Positions 5,691 to 64,000 of a stretch of 64,000 bases of DNA are shown here, in pieces. Numbering within the stretch: the first letter of the stretch is position 1; every line of letters begins with the position of its first letter. Made by a program: the position numbers and the translations under genes. Source of the stretch: Bacilli bacterium (lineage in GTDB: Bacteria > Bacillota_I > Bacilli_A > RFN20 > DUOF01); contig JBGVRX010000017.1 in the NCBI GenBank assembly GCA_045128835.1, positions 28,938 to 92,937 of the forward strand. Direction: 5' to 3'. The notes beneath the pieces were generated by a model. It was not told the origin of the DNA. It did not search any database and saw only the letters and a program-made list of their open reading frames with translations.

Positions 5691-5691
5691 A

Positions 5692-6926: not shown

Positions 6927-6927
6927 T

Positions 6928-7425: not shown

Positions 7426-7940
7426 TTCTCATACTCCTTGACTTTAATACCTTTAGAATTAATTAAACTAATATATTCTTCTCTATTTAAATATATATCT
7501 TTGAATAAGGGAATGGCAACAGCTTCATTCAAAAACAAATAAAAATATTCTTTAGTTTCTACAACCTTTAAAATATCCTTGTATTCAAAACATTTTTCTT
7601 CCGTTTTGAAATCTGATTTATGAAATCTAATAACTACGTTTTCTTCATAAATTTGTTCAACCTTTTCCACATCAAATACATGTCTTTTACTTACAAACAA
7701 AGAGGCAATTATCCCAATCAAAATAAAGAACATGACAATAAGAACTAAATAAATAACTCGCAAAAAAATCTCTTTCATTCCCGATAAAACAAAACACAAA
7801 GAAATAAGCGCAGCTATACTAATAACAAACACCATAACACAATTTCTTAATGAGCCTTTTTTTAATTCTTCTTTATAATAAACTTTCAAAAAATTTTGAA
7901 GACCTTTATTATAATCTTTACCACTTACAACAAACTTCAT
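7422..7940 (-). CDS. YcxB-like membrane protein (paralog 1)
   Basis: Same architecture (two TM helices plus FYLFLNEAVAIPLFKD…). It sits 4 nt after the uvrB stop. Confidence 0.55.
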   Translation of the reverse strand: MKFVVSGKDYNKGLQNFLKVYYKEELKKGSLRNCVMVFVISIAALISLCFVLSGMKEIFLRVIYLVLIVMFFILIGIIASLFVSKRHVFDVEKVEQIYEENVVIRFHKSDFKTEEKCFEYKDILKVVETKEYFYLFLNEAVAIPLFKDIYLNREEYISLINSKGIKVKEYEK

Positions 7941-7944
7941 TTTA

Positions 7945-20469: not shown

Positions 20470-20471
20470 AC

Positions 20472-25370: not shown

Positions 25371-25400
25371 AGAAAAAGGGATAATATTATATATTATCCC
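25371..25400 (-). terminator. Strong terminator after giant gene 1: perfect 10-bp stem GGGATAATAT-TAT-ATATTATCCC followed by U-rich run
   Basis: At about 25378–25400, 2 nt after the stop at 25403. The transcript continues UUUUUCUU. Confidence 0.6.
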
Positions 25401-25402
25401 CC

Positions 25403-28400
25403 TTACATGTCTTCATAGATGATTTCCTCTTCTTCCTCTTCTTCCTCTTCTTTCTTTCTACGTTTCAAGAATATTACAAAGAAGAACGCTACTAGAGCAA
25501 AGATTAGGAAGGCTATTGCAGCGTAGCCTAATCCGCCATCTTCACTTTCATCTCCATCTACTGTTTGACTTCCGAATTTATTTAATTCTTCAGCTTCTAC
25601 AACGAAACCAACAAACATATAAGTATCATCAGTTCCAGCAACTTTAATTTCTACGATTCCTCCAGAAATCAAAGTTTGATATTCACTTTCTGAGAATAAT
25701 TTACCACTAACATATTGGAATCCTCCATCAATAAGTGGCATAGCAATTAAGATACCATTATTTCTAGAATATGATGTTCCAGAAATACTAACTTTATCAA
25801 TTGCATTGTGTTGAGAAATTATATTAACAAGTTTTTCATTAATTATTACGCTACGAGTTTTATTGATTACAAATTGCAAGTTAACAGTATTGCCAGCTAA
25901 ATCTCTTATAACAACTTGATAATATCCATCATTAGTAAATGTGTATAATGTTGGAATGTTGTATTTTGAGTTAACTGCTATTGTTGCATTTTCTTCTGTA
26001 ATCAAATTAACATCAGTATTGGTAATACCTTTGTTTATAACCCCTGTCAAACTGAAGTTAGGTGCCGTTCTATCAACAACAAACATTACTACAGAAGATA
26101 CGTTATCAGCCATATCTACAGCATATACACGATACGTTCCTTCATGTGAGAATGATAATACTTGTTCATCTGTTCTTACCCATTCTCCGTTTTGATATCT
26201 ATACTCATAATATTTAATTTTTTCATTACTATATACTTCTACAACTTCTCTGTTTGTATATTCACCATTTCTAACACCTAAAATTTGAGGTGGCGTGCTG
26301 TCTATTGCAAACCATATTCTTGTTTCATTTCCAGCATCGTCTCTTACTAATAAATTATATTCACCTTCAGCTTCAACGAAGTGAGGGCTTGATATTTCTT
26401 CTCCATTCAACCAACCAATTAATTTTTCATCTGTTCCTAAAGTTGGGATGAAATAAATACTAACTGGTTCTTTATAATATTTGCCATCTTCAACACCTAG
26501 TACGATAGGTGGTATAGTATCTACAACATAAACAATTCTCGTTGCTTCACCAACGTTTCCAGAACTATCGATAGCTTTATAAATTACTTCATAAACACCT
26601 AGCGCCATACCTGATGGTGCATTTATTATTGTGACATGTGGCATTGGTCCATCGTAATTATCGATTGCAGTTGCCCCATATTCCACATATTCCAAACCTC
26701 TTTCAATAGTAATAGGATTTTCACCAATTAGCGTTACAACCGGTGGTGTTGTATCTTTTACATATACCCGCCTGATAACAGGTTCAGCCTTATTTCCATT
26801 ACTATCTGTCGCATTATATGTAACAATATATTCACCTAACTTATTAACATTAATATTATGATTAACAACAAGGTTTACTGTTATACCATGATATTCATCA
26901 TATCTATCATATACAATAGCGCCAAATTCTTCGTACATTGTAAATACTTCAACGATTTGGCTAGTATCATCTTCACAAGGCAAATCATTTGCACATTTAA
27001 GCGTAATTGTAGGTGCAGTAGTATCTACAACCTCAACATAGCGATTAAGCGTTACCGCAGCATTTCCTGCCATATCGCTTACATCATAACGAATTGTATA
27101 TAAACCTATTCTAGTATTATCAACTGTTCCTGTAACAACAACACGTTTTTGAAGTTCATCTAAATCTTCCATATAGTCATCTTCTACCCAAATACCATAT
27201 CCAGGAGCATCACATCTTAAATCATATTCTTCATATAATGCTTCTATTGTTATGTATTGAGGACATTTTGCATAGAAATGAATAATCGGATTTTGAACAT
27301 CTACAACAATAATTTCTCTTGTTACAGTTTGAGCGATATTGCCATGAGCATCTACTGCATCATAATATAAATAATATGTTCCTAACTCATTACCTATTTG
27401 CCCAGTTATAGTTACTGGAACATAACTATCATAGTTATCTTTAGCAACTGCTCCTGGTTCTTCATAATTAAGCTCTGGATATGAATAACGAATAATATAT
27501 GGATTTGTTCCATTAAGAACAATTACTGGAGGAGTACTATCTCTTACAATAACTATTCTAACTTTACCAGCACCAATATTACCAGCTGTATCTTGATAAT
27601 CGTAATGAACATAATATGTTCCTAATCTACTTGTATCAATTCTATTTACTAACTCTTCTCCAAAATAGAAACTTGAACCAGGCATTATAAATGTTCCATC
27701 AACATTATCTTCAACCAAAGCACCTTCATCTTTAAATTCACTATATACTTCTACATATGTTACTTCATCACCAATTAGAGTAATAACTGGTGACACGTTA
27801 TCAATAATTTCTACATATCTTACTGTACTACCTCTGTTACCAGATTCATCGTAAGCAACGTAAGTTACTTCATAAGTACCAATTTTATCAATAATAATTG
27901 GGTTGTTTATAAGAACTTCTAGTGGACCATCATAGTTATCAACCGCAGTTGCGCCATATTCTACATATGCTTGTCCATATAATAATTTTATTTCTCTATT
28001 TCCGATTAGATTAACTACAGGGGGAGTTGTATCTCTTACAACAACTTGTCTATATACACTAATCGCATTATTTCCGTGACTATCTTTAGCATCATACTTT
28101 ATATAATATGTTCCTTTTACTTCTTCATTTACATATCCCGTGATAACTAAAGAATCAGTTATATCTCCATCAATATCATCAATTACAGTAGCACCTTGTT
28201 CGATATAATCCACACCTGTTTTTGCTTCAATGTAAACAACAGGATTTCCATTTAATGTAATTACTGGAGGATTATTGTTACGAACATAGAAGAACAATGG
28301 ATCACTTGTTTTACCACCAATCTTAGCTTGAATTTTATATTCGCCTTTTCCTAAATTAGGAGTATAGTCGAAATAAATATTCGTAACTTTATTAGCCTTG

Positions 28401-31400
28401 ATAGTTGTTCCATTTATTATCCATTGAACAGTTGCATCACTACTTGCATTTTCAGGAACGATAACCATATAAGTTATTCTTTCCTCTTTACCTAAAATTT
28501 GTTCAGTTGAACCATTTACCCATCTTATATAAACAGTACCAACAGTATCTATTTCTACAAATACTTCGTAGTATGCTGTTTTACCGCCATAAGAAGCACT
28601 TACAACATATGTTCCTATACTTCCACTTGGGAAGAAAGAAATGATATTGTTGATTGGATCTTTTGTGAATTCCCATTCTAATTCTTCGTTTTTGATAATT
28701 GTCCATACAACATCGCCAATGTTAGTTTCATCAGCACCTTCATTAAACCTTACATATAATCTAACTTCTTCTTCTTCACCTTTTACTTGATATTGGTTAC
28801 TTGTTAAAGAATAAATAGTTAAACCTGTAAATTCAGCATATCTTATAGTAAATACTCCTGGAGTATAAATAATTTGGTAGTTACTGTTAATAGATAAACT
28901 ACCTTGCATAATTTCATACTCTCCAACTTCCTCTCCGGCATCCCTAACCAAAGAACCGTAGAATCTATCATTACCAATAAGAGTTCCTATATAGTTATAT
29001 GTTAATTGAGGATCTGCTGTACCGTATAACTTACCATTATTTTCAGCTTTTACCTCTATAATTCTAGCCATTACTGTGAAATAAGCTTCATTTAATACCA
29101 TATCAAAGTTTGGCCCAAAACTTAAAGTTCCTAGCAAGATTCTATATTTACCTACATCTTCTCCTGGCTCTCTATCAAGTTCTCCAGTATAAGTTGCTCC
29201 AGCAAAATCTATGGTAAACTTGAAGTAATCAGGATCATCTTCACCATATACTTTATATAATGTTGATTCACTAGGTGTAATTGTTACAACTCTTTTGTTT
29301 ACGATTAATAAACCAGGCAAGAAACTGTAGTTGTAGTTTCTTATGTTTGTAACAGTTATATTATCACCTAAAATTCTATAAGTTCCATAACCTGCATATT
29401 CTCTATCTAAATTCAATTCACCTTCGATTGAATCCACAACACCAATGTCAGGATTATTTGCAACTCCATCACCGCTTATTGTATAAGCTAATTCAAATGG
29501 ATCTCCGTAATAAATTTCAATATCACTTGCTTTTAAAACCAAAGATCTTGGGTTAATAGTAAATGTTCTACTACCATCTAAAACAAGTTCATAGTTAGGT
29601 TTACCACTTGGAGTGTTAACACTTAAGGTTCCAAGACTAATTAAGTATTCTCCAACATCTTCAGTAACCATAACACCATTTACATCTCTTGGAGTTCTCT
29701 TTAAAGTTCCAACAAACTCATCGCCTTCATCTAATAAAGCTGGAGTATATGTAAATGTAATACCTATATCTGATTCGCCATATTTTTTGAATTGTCCATC
29801 ATCTGGAGTTATTTTAATTGTTCTAGGCACAATTGTTAATGTACCATTCTCGAATGAATAATTGTAATATTTGTGAGTAACATCTTCACCTGTATATCTT
29901 CTAACGATTTTTATGTCCTCACAACTAATTGTGTAAGTTCCAACACCATCAACTGTTCCTAGTATTTTCAAACTACCATCTAAAATATCATATATTGGAC
30001 TTCCATCGATTTCTAAAGTCAAGTTATATGCTAGTTTACTTCCACTTGTATCATAAACTATATCTTTTTGATATTCATTACCATATATTGCACTAACGTC
30101 TCTTGCTTTAACAAGAATTGTTCTTTTTTCTATACGGAATGGATGATAATTTCTAAACTCAGTAATTAGATAGTTAGCCACTCTTTCTCCATCTTCATTT
30201 TTACCATGAAGTATAAGTTCAAATGTACCCCAGTTTATTGCATAATCACCAGGTTCTTCACCTGCGTCTCTTCCAAGCCATCCTTTGTAATCATATTCAA
30301 GCATTTCTTCTATAACGCCATTATAGTAAACAATAAACTCTAATTTAGGGTCATCATTACCATATTGTTTTCCTTGTCCAGATTTAACTTCAATTGAAAC
30401 TTCTCTTTGAACAATCTTCAAGACTCCACCACTTGTAGAAATAGTATAGTTGTTAGTTACATCAAGTTTTTCATCTTCTACATCAGCATAAACTCTAATT
30501 GAACCAACACCAATTTGATAAACACCAACATTACGATATTCACCTGCATCTGGAGTTCCTTCTAAATAGTCAGCATATTGTAGATCATCAACCCAAACCC
30601 CATCAATGATATCTCCACCAACTGTAAATTCTATTTCATCTTGTAACACTTCTTTATAAATGATTGTTTGGTTTTCAATTGAAACTCTTAATAGTCTTTT
30701 TACTATTTCAAATTTATATTCTTGGAATAAATAAACATCATAGTTTTCGCAACCTTCTAGTTTTTCTATAGTTATAGGATAGTACCCAACATAAATTCCC
30801 TCGGCTCTAATTAAATGATATTTCATTCTATCATTATCTCTAGGAATATATGGTTCTTCACCTTCAACGCTACTTGGAGTAATCTCAATAACAAATCTTC
30901 CATTTGCCTCTAAAATTACATATTCATCATATCCAGTTAAATCGTAATCAGTGAAGACTTTATCTTCATCACCATAAACTTTACTTAAGTCTTTAATTAT
31001 CTTTATCCAGATTTCTTTTCTTATAACTTCTAATTCACCCGGATTAAATGTTACGTTGTAGTTGTATTCTGCATCCATATTATCTTTATCTAAAATTCTC
31101 AAAGATCCTTTATTAATAACATATACACCTATTCCATTTACATATTCTGTTATTAAATCTCCGCCTTGAGTATATAAAGATGCTCCTTCTGGAGAAAATT
31201 TATCAGCAATTCCCAAGTTTGCGTTATTTACCAAACCAGTCGCAGTACCAACACTACTATCATAAACTTCTAAATAAGGTATATTATCCTCATAGTATAT
31301 AGTGTATTTCCCTGTTGGATTTCCATTTTCATCCAAATCACCTTTTACACTAATTGAAATATCTCTTCTTAAAATAGTCAAGTATGCATCAAAGAATTCT

Positions 31401-33916: not shown

Positions 33917-33945
33917 TGCTTTCACTCTCCTTTCTTTAAATATAA

Positions 33946-33970
33946 GTAGGGGAAAAGTTTATTTCCCCTT
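33946..33970 (-). terminator. Hairpin AGGGGAAA-N6-TTTCCCCT between giant genes 2 and 1, overlapping the gene-2 stop and abutting the gene-1 RBS
   Basis: Perfect 8-bp stem at about 33948–33969. It is followed on the transcript by ACUUAUAUUU (a weak U-tract) and then AAAGGAGA-N9-ATG of gene 1. Confidence 0.4.
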
Positions 33971-46877: not shown

Positions 46878-47104
46878 ATAAACACTCCTCCCTAAGGGTA
46901 CAATCATAGACAATAACATTTTATAACAAAAGTCTCTTGCAACCAATGTTTTACGGCTTTTTTTGTCGTATTTTGTGTACAATATTTCTGTTTTTTTACA
47001 AATAGCATAAATTTCGCCATTTTTATAAACTTTTATATTATTATATAATAATATAAAATTATTGATTTAACCAAAATAATAAAAACAGCAAAAAATTACC
47101 AACA

Positions 47105-47181
47105 ACAAAAAAAGAGACATATAACGTCTCTTTTCATTTAAATAAAAAAGCTAGAAGGATTTCTCCAATCTAGCTTTTATT
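47105..47181 (-). terminator. Tandem pair of bidirectional-looking hairpin terminators after giant gene 3 (AGAGAC-N7-GTCTCT and AAGCTAGA…TCTAGCTT)
   Basis: At about 47112–47130 and about 47149–47177. Each is flanked by an A-run on one side and a T-run on the other. They lie immediately 3' of the stop at 47183. Confidence 0.6.
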
Positions 47182-47182
47182 T

Positions 47183-53100: not shown

Positions 53101-56100
53101 CATTTGCTGGGTTAGAATAACTATCAGCATAAACATTGTAACTATAATATTCTACAGTGTTGCTAGATACTGTTACTTCTCTTAAAGCATCTGTATTTCC
53201 TCTAGCACCATCATAAACCTTAGATGATAATACTGCAGATGTATAAACACTAGTTGATCCACTAATTGTGTAATACTCGTAATAATTTTCACCTAAGCTA
53301 TTTTGTAACGCTTCGTTTTGAGCATCACTAATACAAGTTGTATAAATACCTGAGATATTTATTAAACAGCTTGCCTTTTGAATAATACTATATGTTGTTC
53401 CATCAATTGTAACAGTCTTAGCGTTTTGTCCACTTGTTGTTTCAACTGCAATTGTAGCAACAACAACATTACTACTCTTATTCAATACTTTTCTACCATC
53501 AATAACGTATGTTACTGAATCTAATTCAAATTCATATAAACTTGTGTATTTATCTGAAGTATTTTGAACTCTTTCGATTTTTGCTTTTTGAGTAGTTCCG
53601 TCGAACAAGTATACACCTGATCCATAAACTAAACCATTTTCTCCTGTTCCATCTCTTACTTCTGTAAATGTAATATTAGGCATTGAACCATTTTCAGTAT
53701 AGTTACCATAAATAAATCCTTGTTCAGAATCTGGAGTAATAGAAACTTCTCTTGTTTTGATTGTCATAGTTCCAGATACTTCAACGATTTCGTAGTTGTC
53801 TCCTAAAACGTTAATTGAGTAGTTAGGGCTAACTTCTACTAATTCATGTGTACAGTCTGTTACACCAGTTTGAGCAGCACACGCTGTTACTGTATATGAA
53901 CCCGCATTTTCACCATGAGTTCTTCTGAAATAAATACCAAAGCTGTTTTGTAAATCAGTAGCACCTTGGAAAATATAATCAGAATTTGTTGAAACACCAT
54001 TATTCTTTATTTGCCATTGTTTCATTGTGCCATCAGCATTAACAAATTTACTAGCATCTACTGTACTTAATCCGTGAGCATCACTTTCAGCAGTGTTGCT
54101 AGCACATTTAATATTTGTACCATCTTGAGTATAACCAAGTCCATTTGGACATATAGCTACCAAGAAATCACTATACTTATCTGCTTCACCGTATGTTTTT
54201 TCAACATCTACTGCATATAAGTAAATAGTTCTCTTTATAATTTCGAAATAAACTTCTTTAGCTGCTTCTGTAAAGAATCCTACTTCTGTTCCACTACTAT
54301 TTTTATTAGCGTCGTTATCAAGTTTCAATTCATCGTAAGGTTCTTCAAATACAGTTCTTGAAGTCCACCATTTAGCTAATTCATTTTCTCTTCCTGGAGC
54401 ATCATCATTCAAATAGAATCCAAGATACCAATAGTTGATTGGATTGCTATCAGACGCACTAGAATATTTTTTAACTAAACTTACAGATGTTGATGAACCT
54501 GCAGTATTGTAGTTTCCATCAGTTGCTTTTATTTTGTAAGTGTTATTAATTAACATCTTACCAGTTCTATTACCGTTAGAATCAATTGCATCTGCACCAC
54601 CTGTTGAAATACAGTGAGCATCACCATAGTAACAAGTAGTAAACAAGATTTCGCTTAACTTAACGTAAGAACCACCATCTTCTTTTACATATGTAGCATC
54701 TAAATCATAGTTTGTTACATATTTAATCATGTAGTTGTTACCGCTTAACGCATCGTTAGTTTTAACATCCCCAAAATCATATGTGTATTTTCCAGCTTTA
54801 TCAGATTTACGATTTGTATCTGTAGGATCAACACTTGTTGGGTCAAATTTTCTGCTTACTTTACCAGTAACAACATCAAATTGGATATCATTAAATGTTG
54901 TTCTAGTTTGTACGCCTGTATCTTCAAAATCTGTCCATGCAGTCCATGGTGCTTTTGCTAAACTGTTTGCAACAGCATAGTACATAGATACACCTAAATC
55001 CACTTGATCTGTGGCTGCGTTTTCACAATAATTTCCACTTCTTCCAGTAAAGTCTGTTAATCCATTAGCTTCTAAGATTTCTTGACATGTCATGTATTCT
55101 AAAGGATCATTCTCACCGTAAGGTTTTACGTTATATTCTGGGTGAACATAAACAATACGTGAAACGATTGTGAATTTAACTTTGTCAGTTTCTTCTCCTC
55201 TAGTAACTCCACTTCCAGAAACATTTGCACTATTTAATTCGATTTCTGAATCAACAGTTTGACTCGCACTTGTAATTAATGAGTTATAAGGAATATAACT
55301 GCCATTAACAAATACATATAAGTTTTTATTTCTATCTGTAGATGCAGTCTCTGTATACATTGCATGTCCAGTTGCATCTAATTTATATCTTGATAAAGAT
55401 GCAATTTCTGCAAATTCGTAAATTTGAACATAAGTTCCTGTTGCATCTTTTGTGTACAATCCACTAGCTTCTGAATATCTTTGAAGACTAGTTAATTGAA
55501 CATATTCATCGTTTATAAGCACATATGCTCCATTTGTATCTGCAACATATGAACTAGAGTTTAATTTAAATTTAAGGATTGTACTTAATGCTATATATTT
55601 ACTATCTCCGCTAGCACCAGTAACTTTTAAGTAATCACCAGTTTCGTTTTGAGTTGCTCCTGTAGCATCAGTATATCTATAACTTCCTAATGCAGATAAT
55701 AACACATAACCGTTTCCTATAACAGCACCTGTTCCATCCACAACACTTGAGTCTTTCAAGTAAATATAACAATCACTAGAACAAACATTTGTTCTTTCAT
55801 ATTGAGTTAATTTTTTATATTTTGTCAAACTATCAACAGATACATATTTACTAATTAAAGCATATGCTCCGCTTGGATTTGAAGTAGTTAAATCTGAATC
55901 ATATCTATCTAAATCCATTAAGTTAACAAACTTGCCATCGATTAATACATAATCTCCTGTACTTGATTCTTGATAATTAAGAGTATATAGAGTTAAATCT
56001 CCTAATGCCACATCTGTCTTATCAGTGTAAGAATGTGTATCAATATCAATAGTAGGACTGTTTCCATAGTAGTTAATATTATAGTTTCTACATGGTGATC

Positions 56101-59100
56101 CACCATTTAACGCAGGGTTATTATATGCATCACACATTGCAGAGTTAGAGTTATTAACTATATTTAATTTACCAAGCGAAATTGTATAAACACCAACTTT
56201 TTGACCTTGATATTTAGCATAGTTATCTTTAATGTAATCATAATCATAACTATTTGCTGAACTATATGTTACTCTGTATAGTCTGTCATCAGTAAGAATT
56301 GGGAAGTTGTTTGTAAATTGAGTTCCACCAGTTAAGAATACTCTTCCTCCACTTTGTGTTGTTGTAACATCATAAGTTGATCCTACTGAAGCGTAAGATT
56401 TAGCAGTATCCTTATCTCCACTAACTGTATACTTATATGCGAAATCAGCATTTCTATTATCTGATGCATCACAATTTGCATAACCAGTATCATAGTCATA
56501 AGTATAATATTCTCCTGCTTCTGTTTTGAAAATTGAATATGCACAACCATACATCTTAACTTGGTTTTCATAAACAGTAATTTCTACATCTGCAGGCAAG
56601 ATAAATAAGTATGCACCTTCATTATTGTTAATACTGTAAGTTATATCATAGTTTCTTGCATTAGCAAATGTTCCAGTTCCTGTAGTTCCATCCTCTACAA
56701 ACACACAATTTGTTTTATCAGTGTCAAGAACACCGTGAGCATCCAAGTTTGTAATACATTGTGTAAATAAAGCATTTGTATTTTGTTTTGTAGCGATATT
56801 TCCTGTCGTGATCTTATAGTATCCAACATCATCAAATACACCAACATTAGCAGCGTTCTTGCTTGCTCTAACAGGTCTTCCGTTAAAGTTTTCTGCAATT
56901 GTATCTTTAGAATCTAATCCTTCGATAACAAATCCATATTTATTACCAACAACATTATCAGTCATAGAAGTACAATCAGTAATTAACCCTGTTTTAACAT
57001 TTCCTGCATCATCTACTAAATATGAAACATCATTCATACATTGAGCTAATTTATATGAAGTATAAGCACTATAATCAGAACCTAAACCATAACTAGAATA
57101 TGTGCTTTCACCATATTCCATTGTATAACCTGTAAGTTGAATGTTAGTAACTTTAGGTTTGATTGTTAATGTACCACCACGATATGTGAATTTATAGTTT
57201 TGTTTTATTCTAGAGTTGTTCGTTGTAGCATCTGTTCCAGTAAGTTGAGCAATATCAGCGTATACATAATACGTTCCTGCTGGCAATGCTTTATCACTAG
57301 CATCATAGTAGTAACCAGAACCTTCTGATGAAACAACACTATGAAGATAGAATTTTAATCCAATTGATTGCCATGTATCACCAGAAGTGATTCCATAGTC
57401 AGCATTACTTGTACAATCTACTAGATAATCCCCTAAGTCGCTATAACACAAGAAGATATTTCCTTCTGAAGTAGTATTGTTTATATAGAATATTCCATTG
57501 CTGTTTCCATTATATTGGTAAACATTACTACTATAATTTCCACCATCATAATACTCATAACGTTCACCATAAATGAATGTATAATTTTCATCAATGAATT
57601 CAAGAATAATTTCACGTTTGAATATTTCAAATTTAATTGTTGTATTATCTGAGTTTCCACATGTCATAGAGTAGAATCCAGAGTTACATAGATTAATACC
57701 GTTTGGAGCGTAAATGTTATCATCATCTCCCTCAACAGTTTCGTAAATATCTAATGCATCATCATATGTTGGAGCATTGTCTCTATAAACGACATTATAG
57801 TTTCTGCAATCAACATTTGTTGCCCCACCACTTGTTGCAACACTATTTTCTCCAATAACACATTCTTTGTTATCGTTGTTAACTTTTCTTATTGTGTAAA
57901 CCTTAACATCTGGAGAAGCAACAACTTTAAAGTTTTTGATTTCATCATATGAATACCAAGCAACATTTTCACCAAGAGAACGGGTAACAGTAAAGTTTTC
58001 ATCGAACAATGAGTATGTTTGGTTAACTAATCTTCCTTCAACAACAACTTTCAAGTATGTACCATCGTTAGTTTGTGTTCTTGAAGAATTATATCTATCA
58101 CTATTCTTTATTTCATAATATCTACCAAATGCATAGATATAACTTCCTGTACTGCTTTCGTAATATATTTCTCCTGACTTAGCATATGTTGTTCTTCCTG
58201 TTAAGTTAATATAATCAACATATTGATAAGTAGATTCTGCAGGTGAAACTTTTCTTCTTGAGTAATAAACTTCACTTTCTGCAACCAGATTAGTGTCATA
58301 TATATATGTATATGGATCTTGTCCTAAAACTTGTTCTCTTCTATTGTTTTCTACAGAAATATTTGCAGTATAACCACTAAATGAACTTTCATCAATTTCA
58401 ATATTTGAAACCCATGCATCTGTATCATAAGTAATAGTTTCACCGTAAACCACTAATTGCCATAATGGGTCATTATATGGAGAACCCGCATATTCTTTAC
58501 CTTGATTTATACCAGGTTGAACAATTAAATCAGTCGCTTCGATTTTGAAGTCAGCTTTAATAAATGATATAGCATAGTTTCTAGTATCTCTATTTAATGT
58601 TCTTCCCGCATATTTAACGCTATCTTCACCAGATGCGTTAGTTAAATAAATGTTTCCATTTGTTCTAATTGTTAATGCTGCAACGCTTGAAGAACCATCT
58701 GTTGCATAATGATCAAATGCATAGAAGTAATATGGATGAGTTGTGTCGTAAGCAGAAGGAGTTACAACATCAGCATCTCTACATAAAGCCACCGTTAATT
58801 TAGTTGTATCACTTGGATTTCCACTAATATTACATATATCATAGATACCAACTTCTTCTCCAATTTCTCTTCTAAGAGTTCCTTCGATAATATAGTTAGA
58901 AGCATTATCAACTAATGTTGAGTCTTCATAGTTACCATTATATCTCCATCCACTTACTGTATAACCACCTAAATAACCAGTAGTAACAATATTTGTTGGA
59001 GTTGTTGTATCATTCCAGTTATTACTATAAGGATCTTGTTCACCAAAAGCCTTAGTGCTTCCATTAGCTCTTATAGTTAATACCGCTTGTCTAATAGTAT

Positions 59101-62100
59101 AGTTAACCGCACTTTCTGTATATAATCCATCATCAACTAAAACGTTATCGACAGAATTTGTAATTGTTTGAGTAGCCCCTCCAACAGAGAAGTTACTAGC
59201 AATATAATTTGTATTAATTTTTATAACATAGTCTTCATTGTAATTACTTGTTCCATCTTCTTTAATAGATAAAGTTCCCAACACTATATGGTATTGACCA
59301 ACATTATCGTTTCTAACACCTCTATCTACATCTGTAGAATTTTCATTACAATTTAGAAGTGTAGCAAAATCTGAAACCTCTGTATTTGAGTAATAGTTTG
59401 GAGCATAGCTGTTGTAACAACGGCTTTCTACTCTAGCTAATTGTCCGTCAAATACATTTCTATTAACCAACGCAGCATTTGCGTTAGTTATTGGATCTGC
59501 AGCATCAAACACATCATTAAAATCACTAATGTTATCAAATCCAGCGGAACTAACAACATTAAGGTTATATTTTACGTAAGAACCACTGTTATTTTGAGTG
59601 TATTTTTCTGTATATCTATTAGATTCTTCGATAGCTAAGCATCTCATTCCTGCTCTCAAATAAACAGTTCCTGTTTCTGTTCCCATAGCAGCGTATAAAC
59701 AAGCCGCATCACTGTAAACATATCCACTCTTAATTTCATGGTATGTTCCATCATTTAATAAATACTCACCAGAATTATTTTGAACATATTCCATGTTGTA
59801 TCTTTTAGCGCTTTCTAACTTAACATATGTATTGTTAATCTTTATGAAATAATTTCCACTTGTAGAATCCCATGCTGCGCCACTAGAAATAGCTGTATAT
59901 GTATGATAAGCATATCCTAATTCCACAGTTCCTGCCGTTCTTGTATATATATTAACATCTGTTGTATCATTTATTTTTTCATAAACATCTCTACTACAAT
60001 ATATACTTGTGAAATATTCATTAATAAATTCTTTTTCAAAGAAGTGATCTTCTAAGTTAAATGTATCGTTAGCTTTGTTTACATAAACACAGTAATCGAA
60101 TAAAGGTTCTTCTTCACCATACATTTTTTCTCCAGCCAAAGGCTCGATAAGTAATGTTCTTGGGTTAACATAATATGTAACATAAATAGTTAACACATTA
60201 TCAGCAGTTCCTGTTATTCCACTCTTATCTTCCCAGTGATCTGATATTTCAATCTTTAATTGATGATATCCGGATTTATATAAGTGAGGGAATCCTGTAG
60301 CAGCATCATTGTCGCCAATTGTCATCCAAGTTCCTCTTTCAAGGACTTGCATAACAATCTTCTCGTGATATGAATCTGAACCACTACCAAGATAATATTG
60401 TTTACCATCATCAGTCTTTATCGCATTACCTTGAAGAATCAATTCACTTGTAATGTGATTTAAGTTGTTATCTTTAATTTTATATACTTCACCAACTTTT
60501 AATTTGTAACATTTCAAAATTCTTTCTTTAACTTGAATCAAGTTATCAATTTCCAATCTACATTCAGTTGGTTCGTTAGAATAATTTAAACTGTTATCAG
60601 CGTTTTCTCCAGTCATATCAATACCAGGACTTGTTGTATCAAGAATTGTAACATTAACTGCATACAAATTAGATAAATGTCCTTCAACAGAATTGTAATC
60701 TCTAGTACTAAATACCATTTGGAAGTTTTCAACATCGTCTATGTATTTATTTATTAATTCGAAACAAGCTTGGTTTGCATCATTGCTTGCACCACTAGCA
60801 TCATTAGCATCTATTGTAACAGTACAAATTTCAGCAGCACCGCCAGCTGTTTTGAATTGAATTTTCAAATAACCCAAGAATGTTGTAGCATCTTTTTGGT
60901 TTACAAATTCAACTCCCGCATTTGCAATATATGCTGTATCTATTTGAGTATATGGTTCAGTTGTTCCACCATCATAATTTGTATATCCAACTTGTTTTAC
61001 TAGCCCTCCGCTGAAAGAAGTGAAGTTATTATTAATTATATAATTATGCAAGTTATAAGAAGTTCCAGAAGAATTTCTATTACTCTTAGAATTATATGTA
61101 GGATCACAGTAAGAACCAGCAGCAGTACTAGACTTATTTTCACTTCCTGTAGTTACATCAAAACATTGATTTGTGCTATATCCAAAGTTAACTTCATAAC
61201 GAGGATATATGTTTTGCACGCTACTTCCACTATAATATTCGATTGAATCTACGACTTTAATTTGTGCAATTTCTAAAGCATCTTGATAATTAAATATTTT
61301 TTGTCCTTTAGAGTTATAATAAATCGTTGTATAATTTGCTGTATTTTTCCAGTATTCATCATTACTTGTATCTGCATCGCTCAACAAACTATTAACATCT
61401 GGATTTACAGGATTAACCTCTCCGCCACCAATAACATAAGGATATGTATTTATACTTGTACTAGATTCATTTGTCTTTCCTGTATCAACACCCAAGTCAC
61501 TAGAAATGACTGGTGCAGTTCTATCTATAACACTAACTTCAACTTTAGGGTTCTTAGCTGAACCTTCTAGTGAATCTGTTGTATTTCCAAAGTTATCTGT
61601 AATTTTAATTCTATAACGCCCATTACTCTTGATTGTAAATGTAATTTTATTGTTTCTGTATCCAATAGTAGCGCCACCACTGTAATCCCCAGATCCGTAA
61701 TCAATATTTGAGGCAGAACACAATTTATCCAGATCTGTTCCACATGAAACGCTATTAGTAGTTAATGCCAAACTTCCTGCTGCATCATCTGTAGAAATAT
61801 CTTTAACTCTCCAGATTACAACGCCATCACCATCAAATTCATTTGGAACATTTGTATCACCATCTTGATATCCTAAAGGTTGTTTAGCAATATCTTCAAT
61901 ATTTGTTGTATCTGAACCATCTGTTCCGTTATTACCAAACACACCATTAGTTATAACTATCTTTTGGAAAACATAAACTTCAACAACTATTTGGTCATTA
62001 ACCATTTTTGTGAAATCAATTTCAAATGGCGATGTAATTGAGAACAACCAACCTTGTTTCCAGCTTCCACCATCATAAGCTCCTGTAGAAGTCATTATAT

Positions 62101-63442
62101 TTAAAGCAACTGCATTTGTATAATCCACAATTATATTAGTTTTAGAAACGTCTTCAACGTCAATAACTTCTGTATTGTAATAAGAGTTGCCAAACACATC
62201 AGTAATATAGAAAACATAGTTTCCTGAAGCATCAACCATTAATGCAATTAGATAATTCTTTGTTGGGTCCATTCCAACGTTAGCTCCAGTTGTATCATAT
62301 GTTCCAGCAGTCGCATCAACAGACCCGACTAAATGGAAGTCATAATAATAATAAACAACTTTATTAGAATTTTCTGTACCGAAGTTTATAAATGTATTTG
62401 TTCCGTAAATTGTATTGTCTTTAATACTGCTTATAACAATATCCGTTCCTGAAGTTTCATAAGCAACATCATGAATATATGCACTCTCTTTAGGAAGAGT
62501 AATTGACAATAATTTTTGTTCTGTTGTTTTAGCACCATTCTCGTAGTACACACAAATATTTTCAGTTACAGGTCTTCCTGCTGCGCTATCACTAGAATTG
62601 GTTTCACAAGCATCTTTCACAACATTTCCACTCGCATCAGTTTTGCCAACCCATGTGAATTGGTTTTCATCTAATGGTTTTGAAGAAATGAATGTAACAG
62701 AAAATCTATCTGCATACATTGGGTCAGCCCACACTTCACCGCCAGGAGTATATTCATAACCGCTGTCGTTATACAAAGCAAAGATAATTTCTTTTTGACC
62801 GTATCCCGCATTTCTAATTGTATATGCATATTGAATTGTTATAGTTCCTGGATCAGTAGCCATTGTCGCAGGGTCTGTATTCTTTTCTTCTTTTATACAC
62901 ATTAAAGAATAGTAAGAACCGCCATTAGCTTTCAATTGAGTAGATACTGATGCAGCTGACGCAAATGTTGATACACATAGTTCACTACTAGCATCTAACA
63001 CAACACCAGGAGCTAATCCTCCAAGAGTTGCATAATCAGCATCACTCAAAGAACTCCAAACACCCTCAACACTCTTTTTATATGAATCATAGTTTTTATT
63101 ACCTGAACCAGTATAACCTGTTTCGAACGCAACAATACCATTGATTTCATGATATGGGATTTTCAAAGTAACTGTTACAACATCTTTCATGCTGACACCT
63201 GTACCTTGAATATACCACGCATCATAATAAGACGAAGAACTCACTTCAACAGAATTATAAGAGTTTCCGTTTCCTTTATGATTAGATTGGTGAACGTCAT
63301 AGCTAGATATTTCAACAGCACCAACTTTCTCGCCACCAGCAAATTGGAATGCAAAAAGCACACCAAAAAACATTAGATTAAATATAAAATATTTAACCCA
63401 ATTTACGCTTGTCTTTTTTGTTTTAACATTTTTGGAACACAT
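47183..63442 (-). CDS. Giant surface protein 3 (about 5419 aa): collinear paralog of protein 2 plus extra interspersed 'RY…G-Y-(V/L)' modules, one BNR/Asp-box, C-terminal TM anchor plus KRRQKQR
   Basis: 16.3-kb ORF. Start most likely ATG at 63440–63442 (MCSKNVKTKK… signal peptide, AGAAAGGA 12 nt upstream). ATG at 63454 sits directly on the RBS. The track's 63490 start has no RBS. Anchor motifs shared with protein 2 in the same order along the full length (detailed in the findings). Confidence 0.85.
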   Translation of the reverse strand: MCSKNVKTKKTSVNWVKYFIFNLMFFGVLFAFQFAGGEKVGAVEISSYDVHQSNHKGNGNSYNSVEVSSSSYYDAWYIQGTGVSMKDVVTVTLKIPYHEINGIVAFETGYTGSGNKNYDSYKKSVEGVWSSLSDADYATLGGLAPGVVLDASSELCVSTFASAASVSTQLKANGGSYYSLMCIKEEKNTDPATMATDPGTITIQYAYTIRNAGYGQKEIIFALYNDSGYEYTPGGEVWADPMYADRFSVTFISSKPLDENQFTWVGKTDASGNVVKDACETNSSDSAAGRPVTENICVYYENGAKTTEQKLLSITLPKESAYIHDVAYETSGTDIVISSIKDNTIYGTNTFINFGTENSNKVVYYYYDFHLVGSVDATAGTYDTTGANVGMDPTKNYLIALMVDASGNYVFYITDVFGNSYYNTEVIDVEDVSKTNIIVDYTNAVALNIMTSTGAYDGGSWKQGWLFSITSPFEIDFTKMVNDQIVVEVYVFQKIVITNGVFGNNGTDGSDTTNIEDIAKQPLGYQDGDTNVPNEFDGDGVVIWRVKDISTDDAAGSLALTTNSVSCGTDLDKLCSASNIDYGSGDYSGGATIGYRNNKITFTIKSNGRYRIKITDNFGNTTDSLEGSAKNPKVEVSVIDRTAPVISSDLGVDTGKTNESSTSINTYPYVIGGGEVNPVNPDVNSLLSDADTSNDEYWKNTANYTTIYYNSKGQKIFNYQDALEIAQIKVVDSIEYYSGSSVQNIYPRYEVNFGYSTNQCFDVTTGSENKSSTAAGSYCDPTYNSKSNRNSSGTSYNLHNYIINNNFTSFSGGLVKQVGYTNYDGGTTEPYTQIDTAYIANAGVEFVNQKDATTFLGYLKIQFKTAGGAAEICTVTIDANDASGASNDANQACFELINKYIDDVENFQMVFSTRDYNSVEGHLSNLYAVNVTILDTTSPGIDMTGENADNSLNYSNEPTECRLEIDNLIQVKERILKCYKLKVGEVYKIKDNNLNHITSELILQGNAIKTDDGKQYYLGSGSDSYHEKIVMQVLERGTWMTIGDNDAATGFPHLYKSGYHQLKIEISDHWEDKSGITGTADNVLTIYVTYYVNPRTLLIEPLAGEKMYGEEEPLFDYCVYVNKANDTFNLEDHFFEKEFINEYFTSIYCSRDVYEKINDTTDVNIYTRTAGTVELGYAYHTYTAISSGAAWDSTSGNYFIKINNTYVKLESAKRYNMEYVQNNSGEYLLNDGTYHEIKSGYVYSDAACLYAAMGTETGTVYLRAGMRCLAIEESNRYTEKYTQNNSGSYVKYNLNVVSSAGFDNISDFNDVFDAADPITNANAALVNRNVFDGQLARVESRCYNSYAPNYYSNTEVSDFATLLNCNENSTDVDRGVRNDNVGQYHIVLGTLSIKEDGTSNYNEDYVIKINTNYIASNFSVGGATQTITNSVDNVLVDDGLYTESAVNYTIRQAVLTIRANGSTKAFGEQDPYSNNWNDTTTPTNIVTTGYLGGYTVSGWRYNGNYEDSTLVDNASNYIIEGTLRREIGEEVGIYDICNISGNPSDTTKLTVALCRDADVVTPSAYDTTHPYYFYAFDHYATDGSSSVAALTIRTNGNIYLTNASGEDSVKYAGRTLNRDTRNYAISFIKADFKIEATDLIVQPGINQGKEYAGSPYNDPLWQLVVYGETITYDTDAWVSNIEIDESSFSGYTANISVENNRREQVLGQDPYTYIYDTNLVAESEVYYSRRKVSPAESTYQYVDYINLTGRTTYAKSGEIYYESSTGSYIYAFGRYYEIKNSDRYNSSRTQTNDGTYLKVVVEGRLVNQTYSLFDENFTVTRSLGENVAWYSYDEIKNFKVVASPDVKVYTIRKVNNDNKECVIGENSVATSGGATNVDCRNYNVVYRDNAPTYDDALDIYETVEGDDDNIYAPNGINLCNSGFYSMTCGNSDNTTIKFEIFKREIILEFIDENYTFIYGERYEYYDGGNYSSNVYQYNGNSNGIFYINNTTSEGNIFLCYSDLGDYLVDCTSNADYGITSGDTWQSIGLKFYLHSVVSSEGSGYYYDASDKALPAGTYYVYADIAQLTGTDATTNNSRIKQNYKFTYRGGTLTIKPKVTNIQLTGYTMEYGESTYSSYGLGSDYSAYTSYKLAQCMNDVSYLVDDAGNVKTGLITDCTSMTDNVVGNKYGFVIEGLDSKDTIAENFNGRPVRASKNAANVGVFDDVGYYKITTGNIATKQNTNALFTQCITNLDAHGVLDTDKTNCVFVEDGTTGTGTFANARNYDITYSINNNEGAYLFILPADVEITVYENQVKMYGCAYSIFKTEAGEYYTYDYDTGYANCDASDNRNADFAYKYTVSGDKDTAKSYASVGSTYDVTTTQSGGRVFLTGGTQFTNNFPILTDDRLYRVTYSSANSYDYDYIKDNYAKYQGQKVGVYTISLGKLNIVNNSNSAMCDAYNNPALNGGSPCRNYNINYYGNSPTIDIDTHSYTDKTDVALGDLTLYTLNYQESSTGDYVLIDGKFVNLMDLDRYDSDLTTSNPSGAYALISKYVSVDSLTKYKKLTQYERTNVCSSDCYIYLKDSSVVDGTGAVIGNGYVLLSALGSYRYTDATGATQNETGDYLKVTGASGDSKYIALSTILKFKLNSSSYVADTNGAYVLINDEYVQLTSLQRYSEASGLYTKDATGTYVQIYEFAEIASLSRYKLDATGHAMYTETASTDRNKNLYVFVNGSYIPYNSLITSASQTVDSEIELNSANVSGSGVTRGEETDKVKFTIVSRIVYVHPEYNVKPYGENDPLEYMTCQEILEANGLTDFTGRSGNYCENAATDQVDLGVSMYYAVANSLAKAPWTAWTDFEDTGVQTRTTFNDIQFDVVTGKVSRKFDPTSVDPTDTNRKSDKAGKYTYDFGDVKTNDALSGNNYMIKYVTNYDLDATYVKEDGGSYVKLSEILFTTCYYGDAHCISTGGADAIDSNGNRTGKMLINNTYKIKATDGNYNTAGSSTSVSLVKKYSSASDSNPINYWYLGFYLNDDAPGRENELAKWWTSRTVFEEPYDELKLDNDANKNSSGTEVGFFTEAAKEVYFEIIKRTIYLYAVDVEKTYGEADKYSDFLVAICPNGLGYTQDGTNIKCASNTAESDAHGLSTVDASKFVNADGTMKQWQIKNNGVSTNSDYIFQGATDLQNSFGIYFRRTHGENAGSYTVTACAAQTGVTDCTHELVEVSPNYSINVLGDNYEIVEVSGTMTIKTREVSITPDSEQGFIYGNYTENGSMPNITFTEVRDGTGENGLVYGSGVYLFDGTTQKAKIERVQNTSDKYTSLYEFELDSVTYVIDGRKVLNKSSNVVVATIAVETTSGQNAKTVTIDGTTYSIIQKASCLINISGIYTTCISDAQNEALQNSLGENYYEYYTISGSTSVYTSAVLSSKVYDGARGNTDALREVTVSSNTVEYYSYNVYADSYSNPANEHTRKETNTVSNTLTENARNALNLKCGNTAGLRYSRDVCDYSIVSGELVAGTVLIEKETTFYIYVTNSKRYSYDAGSGEYSQSDAGTYVKYGNNLYAQIIESNMVSYVCESDGTKLVCQYKKDETAGATNNYLKVVKTSNNYRIKSVDETVVFSISAADITVTPIEKQYKIYGEADIEIKFDVETTYVVARTQYQNFANSNIVKICNGGTCYEGTALNAYRYGAIGATTANASGDYILLTKGWTVVLDSYAYDEENQANKSADLDYGVNRTKYKHEMTKDADDNDVIAEEALTHATTGLKHYDKYTTYNSTITTSRILIGNLYVENYDQTVGEKNIVNGLTVGLNKLAGDGNVGAKNYNLTFFTKWFVIVPRPVNVEIENITKIYGQATDADSFDNKYATEKIVGDGILIKDTGADDVLDPNEDVNNSLLINNFNVIDKGLADAIANATVSSGVLKAIVETAHYNDDAGTGGIEVVYMSATDDYSKMNMPTARSIALGSGTTYYNYVTVDVGHYYTATLDASTSKGLIERKNDTLNIKVQRGEYNIARNTSTCLADDSMLCEDVGEYYLSFTTRNAAQTKESTVENAYNNKYWGYNKNYYVIIYNNFEDSNWSSDEINNQSYQSISANTNIYYSSIIDEEGTRTYGSVAYTDDANPKASATLKIRKRAIEIVVETISEYQYEQNNNGTHLRVGTNVDDYKYYLITDTNRYIKNASGKYVQKSDGTYLCSYATANTDSNCYEIVSANRFDAYAKAVGEKYAIEENTDVPALVTVTNSKDVHHTTYDDVNYESITWYHHPLQVRTADQLTGTVAYCQETLTLGNGIGALNTLRALQTCGDSLHYYDANINDESKSNFFDTSEAGYYIITREKQKLYITNEDLTIATEADKWQYEYNNYTTTFVNGILQIDIDETPPVINIETDFIIKETNSGYMSKDAIPAADDVLGFLDALRTNGCASLISTRTEDGSTNVASTCDSGVIFTYEDSTNQPGGETPSVQYNSMKTILQWFGLSSFDPGIMRAGNPSGKRYHPRWYMAIQGDFNQKKVGDYSIFIYVQDDSGNISLASMVTLRLVDETAPTVGTLNLYNAKVSCISATNCGVEDNWVVAEDVYLPINTLTKENLDNMKAADKANKYSFSGKTLVGGVYVSTYTPNQYFGTYYKITAGTSAKAVKHTGWSNTSAGIYMTITGGDDNSLAYLDTSGYTKYNVAGTTITTSASGTHLLLGSFVNVANLTKYRAVGLDVNGDEVDDIDDAESIVYLPDKTGTIIRYKGYYFDLRSGSYIDGTPSAEHAVKLYSHTGTTYTEASSMPETIPEGTTYYLRDGDMYEIPSEKYNASGQHDSTGTYVNFQQWNHYYSRDGGNSWIKYDRDTTSGYLALGQDGQRLIMIKAIDNGYTFAEAEVDKDHVIDAYCKTVGNMTCQIWNNIAVGGVTIKDDSGTAISYKEYAGSKVWKYNISAWEDYSDDGNRDRKYAYLDTIIPNTTLSDQFIEVFEYGCADISKCSVNHVEMFGTAIDGYLFKLDKLIKYNNAGQVTDGGDYVRVGNELILVESLRRFNIDPTTKVITQSNSGAYIYLGKTDSVTAIDTLISEKVADRIAGDINVYNQYTKAQATFTVATSVTGSEEVAEKLQNNTNKLQSGVGLGDILYDASSNPIGADLFSGVGNEERTFGVTIDGATVSDAQIADKYTNIFVYADIRGGTGAVEGNPYYSQQGYYKFVISYSDSDSGYKVYGCYLSSTVPTEFTWCSEGSSNYSVSTLTFTNTREAMNSLLSVYAETSAGNPENRYNFKGNELTFTLDYRVYDIAGNVSVYERKGILFSGFTRTIGVANPTGVALMSYAIDVGQNTNVASALSDFEITTTTGKSLRNNERILQTVYYNGILVSSRKAYDLSMFEDLDTTVPGVYRIVYSIERKDGMAYVVGNSVELTVTVKPDVAIVSTNNINYINIILVSGSVITVGLAMLFVELKRRQKQR
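49013..49036 (-). other. BNR/Asp-box motif (S-R-D-G-G-N-S-W) inside giant protein 3
   Basis: Codons tca aga gat ggt gga … read directly from the sequence. The frame was checked against the ORF. It occurs in the conserved context QQWNHYYSRDGGNSWIKYDR, shared with protein 2. Confidence 0.6.
55301..55993 (-). repeat. Densest cluster of the protein-3-specific short module (…L-x-x-L-x-R-Y-x-x-x-x-x-G-x-Y-(V/L)-(K/Q)-(V/I)…), approx. aa 2500–2730
   Basis: FVNLMDLDRYDSDLTTSNPSGAYALI; YVLLSALGSYRYTDATGATQNETGDYLKV; YVQLTSLQRYSEASGLYTKDATGTYVQI; EIASLSRYKLDATGHAMY. The coordinate mapping was checked against the DNA at several points. Confidence 0.45.
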
Positions 63443-63469
63443 AAATACATACATCCTTTCTAATTTAAG

Positions 63470-63500
63470 TAAAATTACATAAATCGACATTATAATTTTA
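63470..63500 (-). promoter_or_regulatory. Putative promoter of giant gene 3 (palindromic ATTATAAT −10-like element at about 63489–63496)
   Basis: A TATAAT-containing element lies about 45 nt upstream of the preferred start and right after the upstream terminator. No clean −35 was found. Confidence 0.3.
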
Positions 63501-63504
63501 CAAC

Positions 63505-63594
63505 AAAAAACGAACCCAGGGGAGCATTTAGAGGCTTTTTTTTACAATATTGGTGATAAATTTTTGTAAGCCTCTAAAATAGGGTTCGTTTTTT
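63505..63594 (-). terminator. Long nested-stem terminator (AACGAACCC…TAGAGGCTT / AAGCCTCTA…GGGTTCGTT) followed by U6, after the upstream partial gene
   Basis: Two nested 9-bp inverted repeats span about 63508–63590. The transcript ends …GGGUUCGUUUUUUGUUG. Confidence 0.55.
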
Positions 63595-63649
63595 ATATTT
63601 TTTCTAACTTTATTATATATATAATATATAATACTTTCCAATTATCTAT

Positions 63650-64000
63650 TTATATTTCTTTTTTCATTGATACAAATGCTAAACCTAACATTGCCACAAT
63701 TCCAGTCATTACAGCAGCGATAACCGCATACTTAACAGCATTAGAATTATTATTTACTATTGGATTAGTAAATTCACTTTGTATAAATAGATTCATTACC
63801 TTTTGAACAGATACTCTTCCTGATTGGTCAACAACCCTTACGTATATATCGTAATTACCAGCAATATTAGAATCAACCTTATCAACTAATCTACCTTCAT
63901 ACTCAACAATATATTCGTATGTATCAATCTCTTCAACAACGCCTATAAAGTATTTGTCTAAAGAGTAAGCTGTAATTTCAGGATATGTAAATGTTTCTCC
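63650..64000 (-). CDS. 3' end of a fourth surface-protein gene (partial; continues beyond the window): DUF5011-like Ig domain plus C-terminal TM anchor
   Basis: Manual translation of the minus strand gives …GETFTYPEITAYSLDKYFIGVVEEIDTYEYIVEYEGRLVDKVDSNIAGNYDIYVRVVDQSGRVSVQKV…AVKYAVIAAVMTGIVAMLGLAFVSMKKEI*. This is the same Ig-domain-plus-TM-plus-basic-tail ending as genes 1–3. The stop is at about 63650–63652. Confidence 0.6.
   Translation of the reverse strand, partial: GETFTYPEITAYSLDKYFIGVVEEIDTYEYIVEYEGRLVDKVDSNIAGNYDIYVRVVDQSGRVSVQKVMNLFIQSEFTNPIVNNNSNAVKYAVIAAVMTGIVAMLGLAFVSMKKEI

Follow-up and report, generated by a model that had tools for sequence, protein, structure and literature searches.

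The stretch of DNA analysed here, which we call the window (64,000 nucleotides of contig JBGVRX010000017.1, assembly GCA_045128835.1, positions 28,938-92,937 of the forward strand), is filled from window position 25403 to 64000 by a head-to-tail array of four giant genes, designated D, C, B and A. These probably make up a lineage-specific, vertically inherited D-C-B-A cassette for fibrillar adhesins or coat proteins with type-I anchoring in uncultured low-GC gut Bacilli, a reading that we draw from the sequences and their profiles. Giant surface fibres are already known; what is new is a conserved four-gene cassette of different giant transmembrane (TM)-anchored proteins. New as well are two families of giant proteins without annotation, B/C and D, both missed by domain databases (D-type proteins reach 9342 amino acids, aa), and the extreme divergence and swelling of MBG-type units with conserved cysteine pairs in a narrow clade of uncultured gut Bacilli.

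An earlier note on this DNA had described three complete open reading frames (ORFs) and the 3' end of a fourth on one strand, and this is what we find. Called mechanically, the minus-strand ORFs run over 25403..33925 (2840 codons), 33969..46982 (4337 codons) and 47183..63490 (5435 codons), and the frame of D, open at the window edge, meets its stop at 63653. At the local composition (stop-codon probability 0.086 per codon), the chance of a 5435-codon open frame is ~1e-213. The true starts of A, B and C were judged by ribosome-binding-site (RBS) motifs together with the N-termini of orthologues. Gene A starts at ATG 33916, downstream of the RBS AAAGGAGAG, and gene B at ATG 46877, downstream of the RBS GGGAGGAG, at the same Met with which its orthologues begin; C starts at ATG 63442, where RBS motif and orthologue N-termini again place it. 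As mechanical ORFs, B (from a TTG) and C (from an ATG) begin 35 and 16 codons upstream of these positions (46878-46982 and 63443-63490), extensions that we regard as noncoding because of the orthologue N-termini and the RBS positions. A, B and C are real genes, and with the end of D they encode 2837 + 4302 + 5419 + 115 = 12,673 aa within the window, in keeping with the more than 12,500 first estimated.

25403..33916, minus strand: gene A, 2837 aa (ORF, RBS, orthologue N-termini, Pfam, NCBIfam)
33969..46877, minus strand: gene B, 4302 aa (ORF, RBS, orthologue starts)
47183..63442, minus strand: gene C, 5419 aa (ORF, RBS, orthologue starts)
63653..64000, minus strand: 3' end of gene D, last 115 codons plus stop

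The array recurs in related genomes. The nearest GTDB species representatives were identified by a scan anchored on TypA; scanning GTDB for B/C peptide patterns returned no relatives, but those patterns were too specific. The nearest GTDB genomes are uncultured gut 'Bacilli' metagenome-assembled genomes (MAGs) with TypA 91-97% identical, and Catenibacterium and Kandleria belong to the next TypA tier, at ~70-72%. Each of the four closest genomes has an orthologue of A, 2930-2941 aa long and 51-65% identical, directly upstream of typA, and upstream of A in turn the C-terminal end of an orthologue of B, 43-49% identical. Further loci read as follows, with product lengths in aa:

L081: B (4345), A (2879), typA
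L083: D (3409), C (4696, truncated)
L084: D (9342), C (4931), B (4146)
L085/L086: C (5251), B (4110), A (2915), typA
L088: C (5264), B (4266), A (2910)
L087: C (4771), B (4604), A (3035), then an unrelated neighbour, without typA

The order D-C-B-A is conserved in these related gut Bacilli MAGs, and adjacency to typA is limited to the closest clade. The suggestion that related genomes might carry the array beside typA therefore holds for the closest relatives and fails for L087, the most distant member (just 32% identical to B), which keeps C-B-A without typA; in one relative with 72% TypA, the array is absent at the typA position. A horizontally acquired island was considered and rejected, since GC content and skew match the flanks and the synteny is vertical.

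The window and all of its relatives come from metagenome assemblies, and giant repetitive genes are often misassembled; the earlier note had itself raised the worry that the array might be an assembly artefact. We put the probability of an artefact, a chimera or a set of decaying pseudogenes close to nil. The genes are non-repetitive at the DNA level, the chance of their open frames is below 1e-100, and the cysteine pairs and motifs of the proteins are conserved. The array is not an assembly artefact because same-size, same-order orthologues stand in many independent assemblies, and at L085/L086 an identical B-type protein (P0062) is found on 9 contigs, two of them >1 Mb.

A profile of the B/C family, searched exhaustively against 1.84 billion cluster representatives, gave 24 matches below 1e-30, of which ~22 are genuine, being 4100-5600 aa long or fragments of such proteins. 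The family divides cleanly into a B-type and a C-type, and all full-length members have a signal peptide, a TM anchor and a basic tail. Eight of the B/C clusters were looked up; they proved to be singletons or nearly so, without a protein name, and all from metagenome assemblies. No exact-sequence record was found for the B protein of the window.

The three complete proteins A, B and C begin with long Sec-type signal-peptide-like segments, and at the C-terminus all four carry a hydrophobic helix and then a basic tail:

25466..25525, minus strand: TM helix of A, YAAIAFLIFALVAFFFVIFL
33987..34049, minus strand: TM helix of B, then tail NKRKN
47213..47272, minus strand: TM helix of C, then tail ELKRRQKQR
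63674..63733, minus strand: TM helix of D, then tail SMKKEI

No LP.TG motif occurs anywhere in A, B or C, so these are not LPXTG sortase-anchored proteins. The topology read from the sequences is type I, with a signal peptide, a huge ectodomain, one TM helix and a basic cytoplasmic tail, and it obeys the positive-inside rule. The proposal of exported proteins, TM-anchored without sortase and encoded head to tail, is thus supported by the signal-like segments of A, B and C, by the helix and basic tail of all four, and by the absence of LPXTG. Pfam and NCBIfam scans of A, B and C gave no match to an SLH, LysM, cell-wall-binding (CWB) or similar wall-binding module. The presence of peptidoglycan is suggested by two peptidases encoded in the window, one of family M23 and one of family S41 that bears a peptidoglycan-binding domain.

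In composition, too, the giants stand apart, much as had been claimed from their Tyr, Asn, Thr, Gly and Asp content. Compared with 16 housekeeping ORFs of the window, they hold 8.8 vs 5.1% Thr, 8.4 vs 4.9% Tyr, 7.9 vs 5.7% Asn and 4.9 vs 9.5% Lys, and they are richer in Gly and Asp and poorer in Leu and Arg. The many paired cysteines that had been noticed are equally real. B holds ~26 pairs and C ~34, spaced by ~4-35 residues, and most cysteines, 41 of the 54 of B and 54 of the 69 of C, are conserved in >=80% of aligned homologues. The pairs persist across homologues that are only 30-60% identical.

Some way from the array, at 5106-6956 on the minus strand, lie three successive lipoprotein genes with a common 'G-C-S-C' lipobox-like motif after the signal helix. 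One of their products (6432-6956, minus strand) has a Pfam thioredoxin fold with a CYGC active site and would be an exported thiol-disulfide oxidoreductase. At a distance of 20 kb from the giants, it is a possible candidate for the catalyst acting on the cysteine pairs of B, C and D.

What the ectodomains are made of is best read in A, which is a bona fide MBG_2 and Bact_surface_Ig-like protein and the sole Pfam-level member among the giants. Behind the signal peptide comes an N-terminal head with an OmpL47-like beta-barrel, followed by 12 MBG-like units, seven Bact_surface_Ig-like domains plus HYR, the TM helix and the tail. Pfam scores are 119.7 bits for MBG_2 (PF18676, gathering score 25 bits) and 191 bits over seven stretches for Bact_surface_Ig-like (DUF5011, PF16403, 27 bits), with HYR and Big_3_3 as further matches; NCBIfam adds OmpL47-type barrels and LapB_rpt_80. 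The two arrays lie at:

28772..32314, minus strand: 12 MBG-like units of ~90-120 aa in A (ORF residues 538-1718), from an iterative hidden Markov model (HMM) with decoys
26525..28261, minus strand: seven tandem Bact_surface_Ig-like (DUF5011-type) domains in A (ORF residues 1889-2467)

These counts are kept in the orthologues of A, 5 of 6 of which have 12 MBG-like units and all of which have 7-8 Ig units.

The cytoplasmic tail of A, basic and then acidic (KRRKKEEEEEEEEEIIYEDM), is an observation in its own right. This tail, at 25403-25465 of the window, is conserved in 6 of 6 orthologues (L001, L002, L081, L085, L087 and L088), each with a basic stop-transfer K/RRRKK and an acidic run of 8-12 residues, and the orthologues end in an aromatic-containing motif such as IYEDM, IEDIY, IDEF or DFYY. 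It resembles a docking motif, whereas the tails of B, C and D are merely short and basic.

B and C are colinear paralogues, ~30% identical over their entire length by BLASTP. B consists of a 44-aa signal peptide, a ~1000-aa head of Ig-like sandwiches, a divergent MBG-like centre and a C-terminal third with one Asp-box, followed by the TM helix and basic tail; C is laid out in the same way. Pfam finds nothing significant in either, whether they are searched whole or in 470-aa pieces. PDB sequence searches with A, B and the B-family profile gave no meaningful relative, and B, C and the D orthologues have no PDB sequence relative. The regions on which the following argument turns are:

43158..46745, minus strand: B head as modelled by AlphaFold2 (AF2), residues 45-1240, a beta-sandwich chain, confident to ~residue 1010 of the model
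37878..44030, minus strand: B central region, divergent MBG-like units (~residues 950-3000), each 150-250 aa through insertions bearing Cys pairs
51893..60205, minus strand: C central region, divergent MBG-like units (~residues 1080-3850)
35505..35528, minus strand: single conserved Asp-box S-R-D-G-G-I-T-W of B, found by regular expression (BNR E=0.007)

The AF2 model of B residues 45-1240 is nearly all beta, with a predicted local distance difference test (pLDDT) of 74.5 from a family alignment of ~10-20 sequences, and it suggests that the head is a string of Ig-like sandwiches ~1000 aa long. In the family consensus, the heads of both B and C show several 'D-x-x-G-N-x-S ... V-x-V-x-D-T-T-x-P' motifs, as is typical for Ig-like domains of bacteria. 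On fold comparison, the Ig beads of the B head resemble the RTX-adhesin extender 6xi1, at the fold level only. Outside A, the DUF5011-type signal is slight: the A-derived HMM reaches <=12 bits on B, C and D vs a decoy score of 9 bits, and Pfam Bact_surface_Ig-like scores 12.2 bits on B (E=0.19), below significance.

Evidence on the centres of B and C comes from an iterative HMM whose seed was the MBG_2 domain that Pfam verifies in A; decoys made by reversing and shuffling score <=5 bits. This HMM finds MBG-like units 12 times in A, at least 7 times in B and at least 9 times in C, the B/C units being 150-250 aa long. Circularity was avoided by comparing alignments of the B/C family (hhalign) with a profile built from the units of A alone. 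At many central sites, windows of the B/C family match this A-only MBG profile with 83-96% probability, and the full A-family and B/C-family profiles match with up to 98.2%. Among the 1.84 billion representatives, the B/C profile also retrieves non-family matches at E 1e-19 to 6e-12, and four such non-family proteins hold 23, 37, 14 and 9 Pfam MBG_2 domains. According to these profile comparisons, B and C have centres made of MBG-like units that are highly diverged and swollen by insertions, probable remote homologues of MBG_2 that lie below family thresholds. Hence the earlier statement that all of the giants are built from MBG and DUF5011 modules stands for A at the Pfam level and, for MBG, in remote form for B and C; it does not stand for the rest, Pfam being blank for B, C and the D orthologues and DUF5011 being demonstrable only in A.

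The Asp-box (S-x-D-x-G-x-x-W) had been assigned to each giant; it occurs once in B and once in C and is absent from A. Within the B family it is invariant at S3784, D3786, G3788 and W3791. A sialidase-like BNR beta-propeller was rejected, this box being alone vs the typical >=4, and so was a polymorphic toxin or enzyme head, as only Ig-like folds were found.

Of D, the window holds a 115-aa end consisting of a membrane-proximal beta domain, the TM helix and the tail KKEI. Its orthologues are 3409 aa (L083) and 9342 aa (L084; of this annotated product the last 3279 aa were read); they are colinear, 44.5% identical, and carry Cys pairs. They have no Pfam match, and hhalign gives <=0.5% probability against the MBG and Ig profiles, with no detectable relationship, so that kinship of the D type with either kind of domain was rejected. 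The membrane-proximal module of D resembles that of B (hhalign 43% probability).

The L084 D gene (1-9838 of ENA ERZ24773415, a 70,845 bp contig) is nearly three times the size of the L083 D, a large length variation between lineages that is unlike A, B and C.

The B and C orthologues are colinear, with divergence spread roughly evenly along their length, and the giants diverge much faster than the neighbouring TypA. Rapid colinear divergence with an unchanged count of domains is consistent with diversifying pressure on exposed surface proteins, and not with the recombination-driven length variation of 'periscope' proteins, in which variable-length stalks are tuned in repeat number by recombination between near-identical repeats. 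Such a mechanism was worth considering because A has MBG_2, a Pfam family created in the Periscope study, and CdrA uses MBG_2 stalk repeats (PMC8201768). We nonetheless hold it to be very improbable here. The 'hundreds of repeats' built on K-x-YG-x-x-DP that had been proposed are not there: A has three copies of this motif, and B and C have one each. BLASTP finds no internal (off-diagonal) self-match in A, B or C, and Tandem Repeats Finder no DNA tandem repeat except a 29-bp run of Glu codons in the tail of A. The 12 MBG-like units of A recur in 5 of 6 orthologues, and the orthologues of B and C are colinear.

Taken together, these features let us propose how the giants would work. Each would be exported via Sec by its N-terminal signal peptide and tethered by its single C-terminal TM helix, with the short basic tail (basic then acidic in A) left in the cytoplasm. 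Outside, each would form a beads-on-a-string fibre, the beads being some 25-45 small, beta-rich domains; most of the domains in B and C would be stapled by a conserved Cys pair, putatively as a disulfide. The beta-rich string of beads may be taken as certain in A, is modelled for the B head and, in the central regions of B and C, is predicted from profiles. Fibres of this kind, probably of the order of 100 nm or longer, would pass through and beyond the wall, where they might bind ligands on the host, in mucus, on particles or on partner cells, build a fibrillar coat, or do both.

Several results weigh against this picture. The MBG assignment in B and C consists of profile-profile probabilities from partial-length matches, often covering the first ~25-30 or the last ~40 positions of a unit, and AF2 run on the central region with a two-sequence alignment (the B/C pair) gave a pLDDT of 26.8. 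Besides the Asp-box, the C-terminal ~1100-1500 aa of B and C yielded only faint Ig-like signals, and the lack of any detectable MBG or Ig relationship in D counts in the same direction. The disulfides are deduced solely from the conserved Cys pairs. No ligand-binding domain, lectin or binding tip was recognised in the Pfam searches of the pieces or in the fold comparison of the B head model, and an adhesin and a passive coat would look the same at this level.

The last point leads to the reading in which the giants are a protective coat or steric shield, that is, a dense brush of >=100 nm without a specific ligand that bars phages, bile, antimicrobial peptides, immunoglobulins and other cells and modulates access to shorter surface molecules. 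With four different giants in fixed order across every lineage examined, no recognisable lectin or binding tip, and divergence that is uniform along the length and not concentrated at a tip, this reading deserves a hearing, the more so as up-regulated giant surface proteins of S. aureus, including the TM-anchored Ebh, change clumping (PMC4856396). However, the MBG_2 and Ig-like arrays that have been characterised are adhesin stalks (PMC8201768), and a coat usually demands very high expression, which is awkward with transcripts of 13-16 kb; on balance we think a pure coat unlikely.

A more specialised role is conceivable in an attachment apparatus for life on another cell, be it a partner bacterium or the host epithelium, with the acidic tail of A coupling the fibre to the cell interior. 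The lineage appears to have a small genome, the family does not extend beyond a narrow clade of gut Bacilli (~22 clusters among 1.84e9, metagenome-only), the array of one relative stands on a 1.03-Mb contig, the tail of A (basic, acidic run, terminal aromatic) is found in 6 of 6 orthologues, and one D orthologue reaches 9342 aa. Yet large adhesins are common in free-living gut commensals too, and no partner is known, which leaves this reading distinctly improbable in our estimation. We consider it unlikely as well, if worth stating, that D, C, B and A are obligate partners of one undescribed surface organelle, a hetero-oligomeric, disulfide-stapled layer or attachment structure; in that event the fixed gene order, the shared membrane-proximal module and the acidic tail of A would reflect co-assembly and coupling to the interior.

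A cassette of fibrillar adhesins or coat proteins, the reading we prefer, has precedents, and the earlier opinion that no described system matches the array was too strong: the staphylococcal protein Ebh (PMC4856396) and the MBG_2 stalk adhesin CdrA (PMC8201768) both come near. Ebh is a giant held by a C-terminal TM domain and not by LPXTG and sortase (PMC4856396), and Ebh/Embp form a long many-domain fibre reaching far from the cell (PMC9302970). The giants here likewise combine a signal peptide with C-terminal TM anchoring in one very long polypeptide. Ebh/Embp, however, are alpha-helical and built of recognisably repetitive FIVAR/GA (F and FG) repeats, in contrast to the beta-rich, non-repetitive, Cys-paired domains found here (the giants have no Pfam match to FIVAR, GA or DUF1542), and here four different giants stand in one conserved cassette. 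By analogy, then, the giants may resemble Ebh/Embp functionally while lying outside that family.

Arrays of MBG_2 domains serve as extended adhesin stalks, for example in CdrA (PMC8201768). To these adhesins (CdrA and the T9SS-tailed P0026 and P0027) A is linked at the Pfam level and the centres of B and C by probable remote homology. The units of B and C differ in being 150-250 aa long vs ~72 aa in Pfam, and sub-threshold; they show neither repeats of high identity nor variation in length; and ours is a Gram-positive-type lineage with a TM anchor, vs export by two-partner secretion (TPS) or by the type IX secretion system (T9SS). Periscope proteins (PMC8201768) differ likewise, in that here there are no highly similar tandem repeats and no variation in repeat number.

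Likeness to Firmicutes surface proteins of the DUF5011/HYR/Big_3 kind lies in the seven such domains at the membrane-proximal end of A, in the Ig-typical motifs of the B and C heads and in the Ig-like fold of the B head model; B, C and D differ in falling below significance (<=12 bits). Typical proteins of this kind are anchored by LPXTG or SLH and are 5-10 times shorter than these giants. Giant RTX adhesins of type I secretion systems (T1SS), such as LapA, SiiE and MpIBP, carry C-terminal RTX repeats and a T1SS signal, and have no N-terminal Sec signal. Here, in contrast, there is no RTX (no Pfam match to RTX/HemolysinCabind in the giants), signal peptides and C-terminal TM helices are present, and the sole link is the 6xi1 fold.

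Giant bacterial genes mostly encode surface proteins or nonribosomal peptide and polyketide synthases (the huge-protein survey PMC11573180, which also cites the giant-gene survey of Reva and Tummler). Like the giant surface-protein genes, those described here are >5 kb, lineage-restricted and of a composition unlike the bulk proteome; unlike them, they are four adjacent genes in conserved order within a narrow clade, and three of the four families are without an annotated domain.

The intervals between the genes bear the following signals:

25373..25402, minus strand: terminator hairpin 3' of A, immediately before typA, GGGGGATAATAT/ATATTATCCC + TTTTT
33948..33969, minus strand: hairpin in the 43-bp gap between B and A, AGGGGAAA...TTTCCCCT, with a poor T-run
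47109..47178, minus strand: two successive terminator hairpins 3' of C, with a T-run after each
63504..63591, minus strand: nested hairpin and T-run 3' of D
63612-63641, minus strand: promoter-like site TTGGAA-18-TATAAT upstream of C

That the genes are separated by terminator hairpins is thus confirmed, with hairpins and T-runs after D, C (two) and A and a weaker one in the gap between B and A. This last may be a weak terminator, and B-A read-through or co-transcription is possible because the gap measures only 43 bp and the T-run of the hairpin is poor. An Rfam scan over the whole window gave zero matches, and with it no known leader or riboswitch.

Two further pairs of genes in the window, both on the minus strand, may be mentioned. 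At 19696-21557 lie two adjacent paralogous genes for secreted proteins of 257 and 361 aa. Both proteins have a signal peptide, and in both a C-terminal hairpin of two helices surrounds a conserved 'KSADEP..RREKI'. They are flanked by comF-like genes and an M23 peptidase, and their Pfam match to T4SS_pilin (PF18895) is sub-threshold (23.4 bits vs a cut-off of 26.6). At 6928-7940, between uvrB and the lipoprotein trio, two adjacent genes encode YcxB-like proteins of 165 and 172 aa, apparently a tandem duplication.

Giant surface proteins often set where gut bacteria live and what they stick to. In uncultured lineages, their genes are usually broken in assemblies and left unannotated; here, the cassette is intact in several independent assemblies, and it illustrates how far MBG-type stalk domains diverge. 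The many conserved Cys pairs of these exported proteins make disulfide formation outside the cytoplasm of a gut anaerobe a question open to testing, and the giants themselves are candidate markers or handles (for antibodies, fluorescence in situ hybridization with electron microscopy, or enrichment) for a human-gut Bacilli lineage without a cultured member. Should the four proteins turn out to be parts of one surface organelle, this would give the basis of an attached or dependent lifestyle in small-genome, uncultured human-gut Bacilli, and the B/C and D types would found new families of giant proteins.

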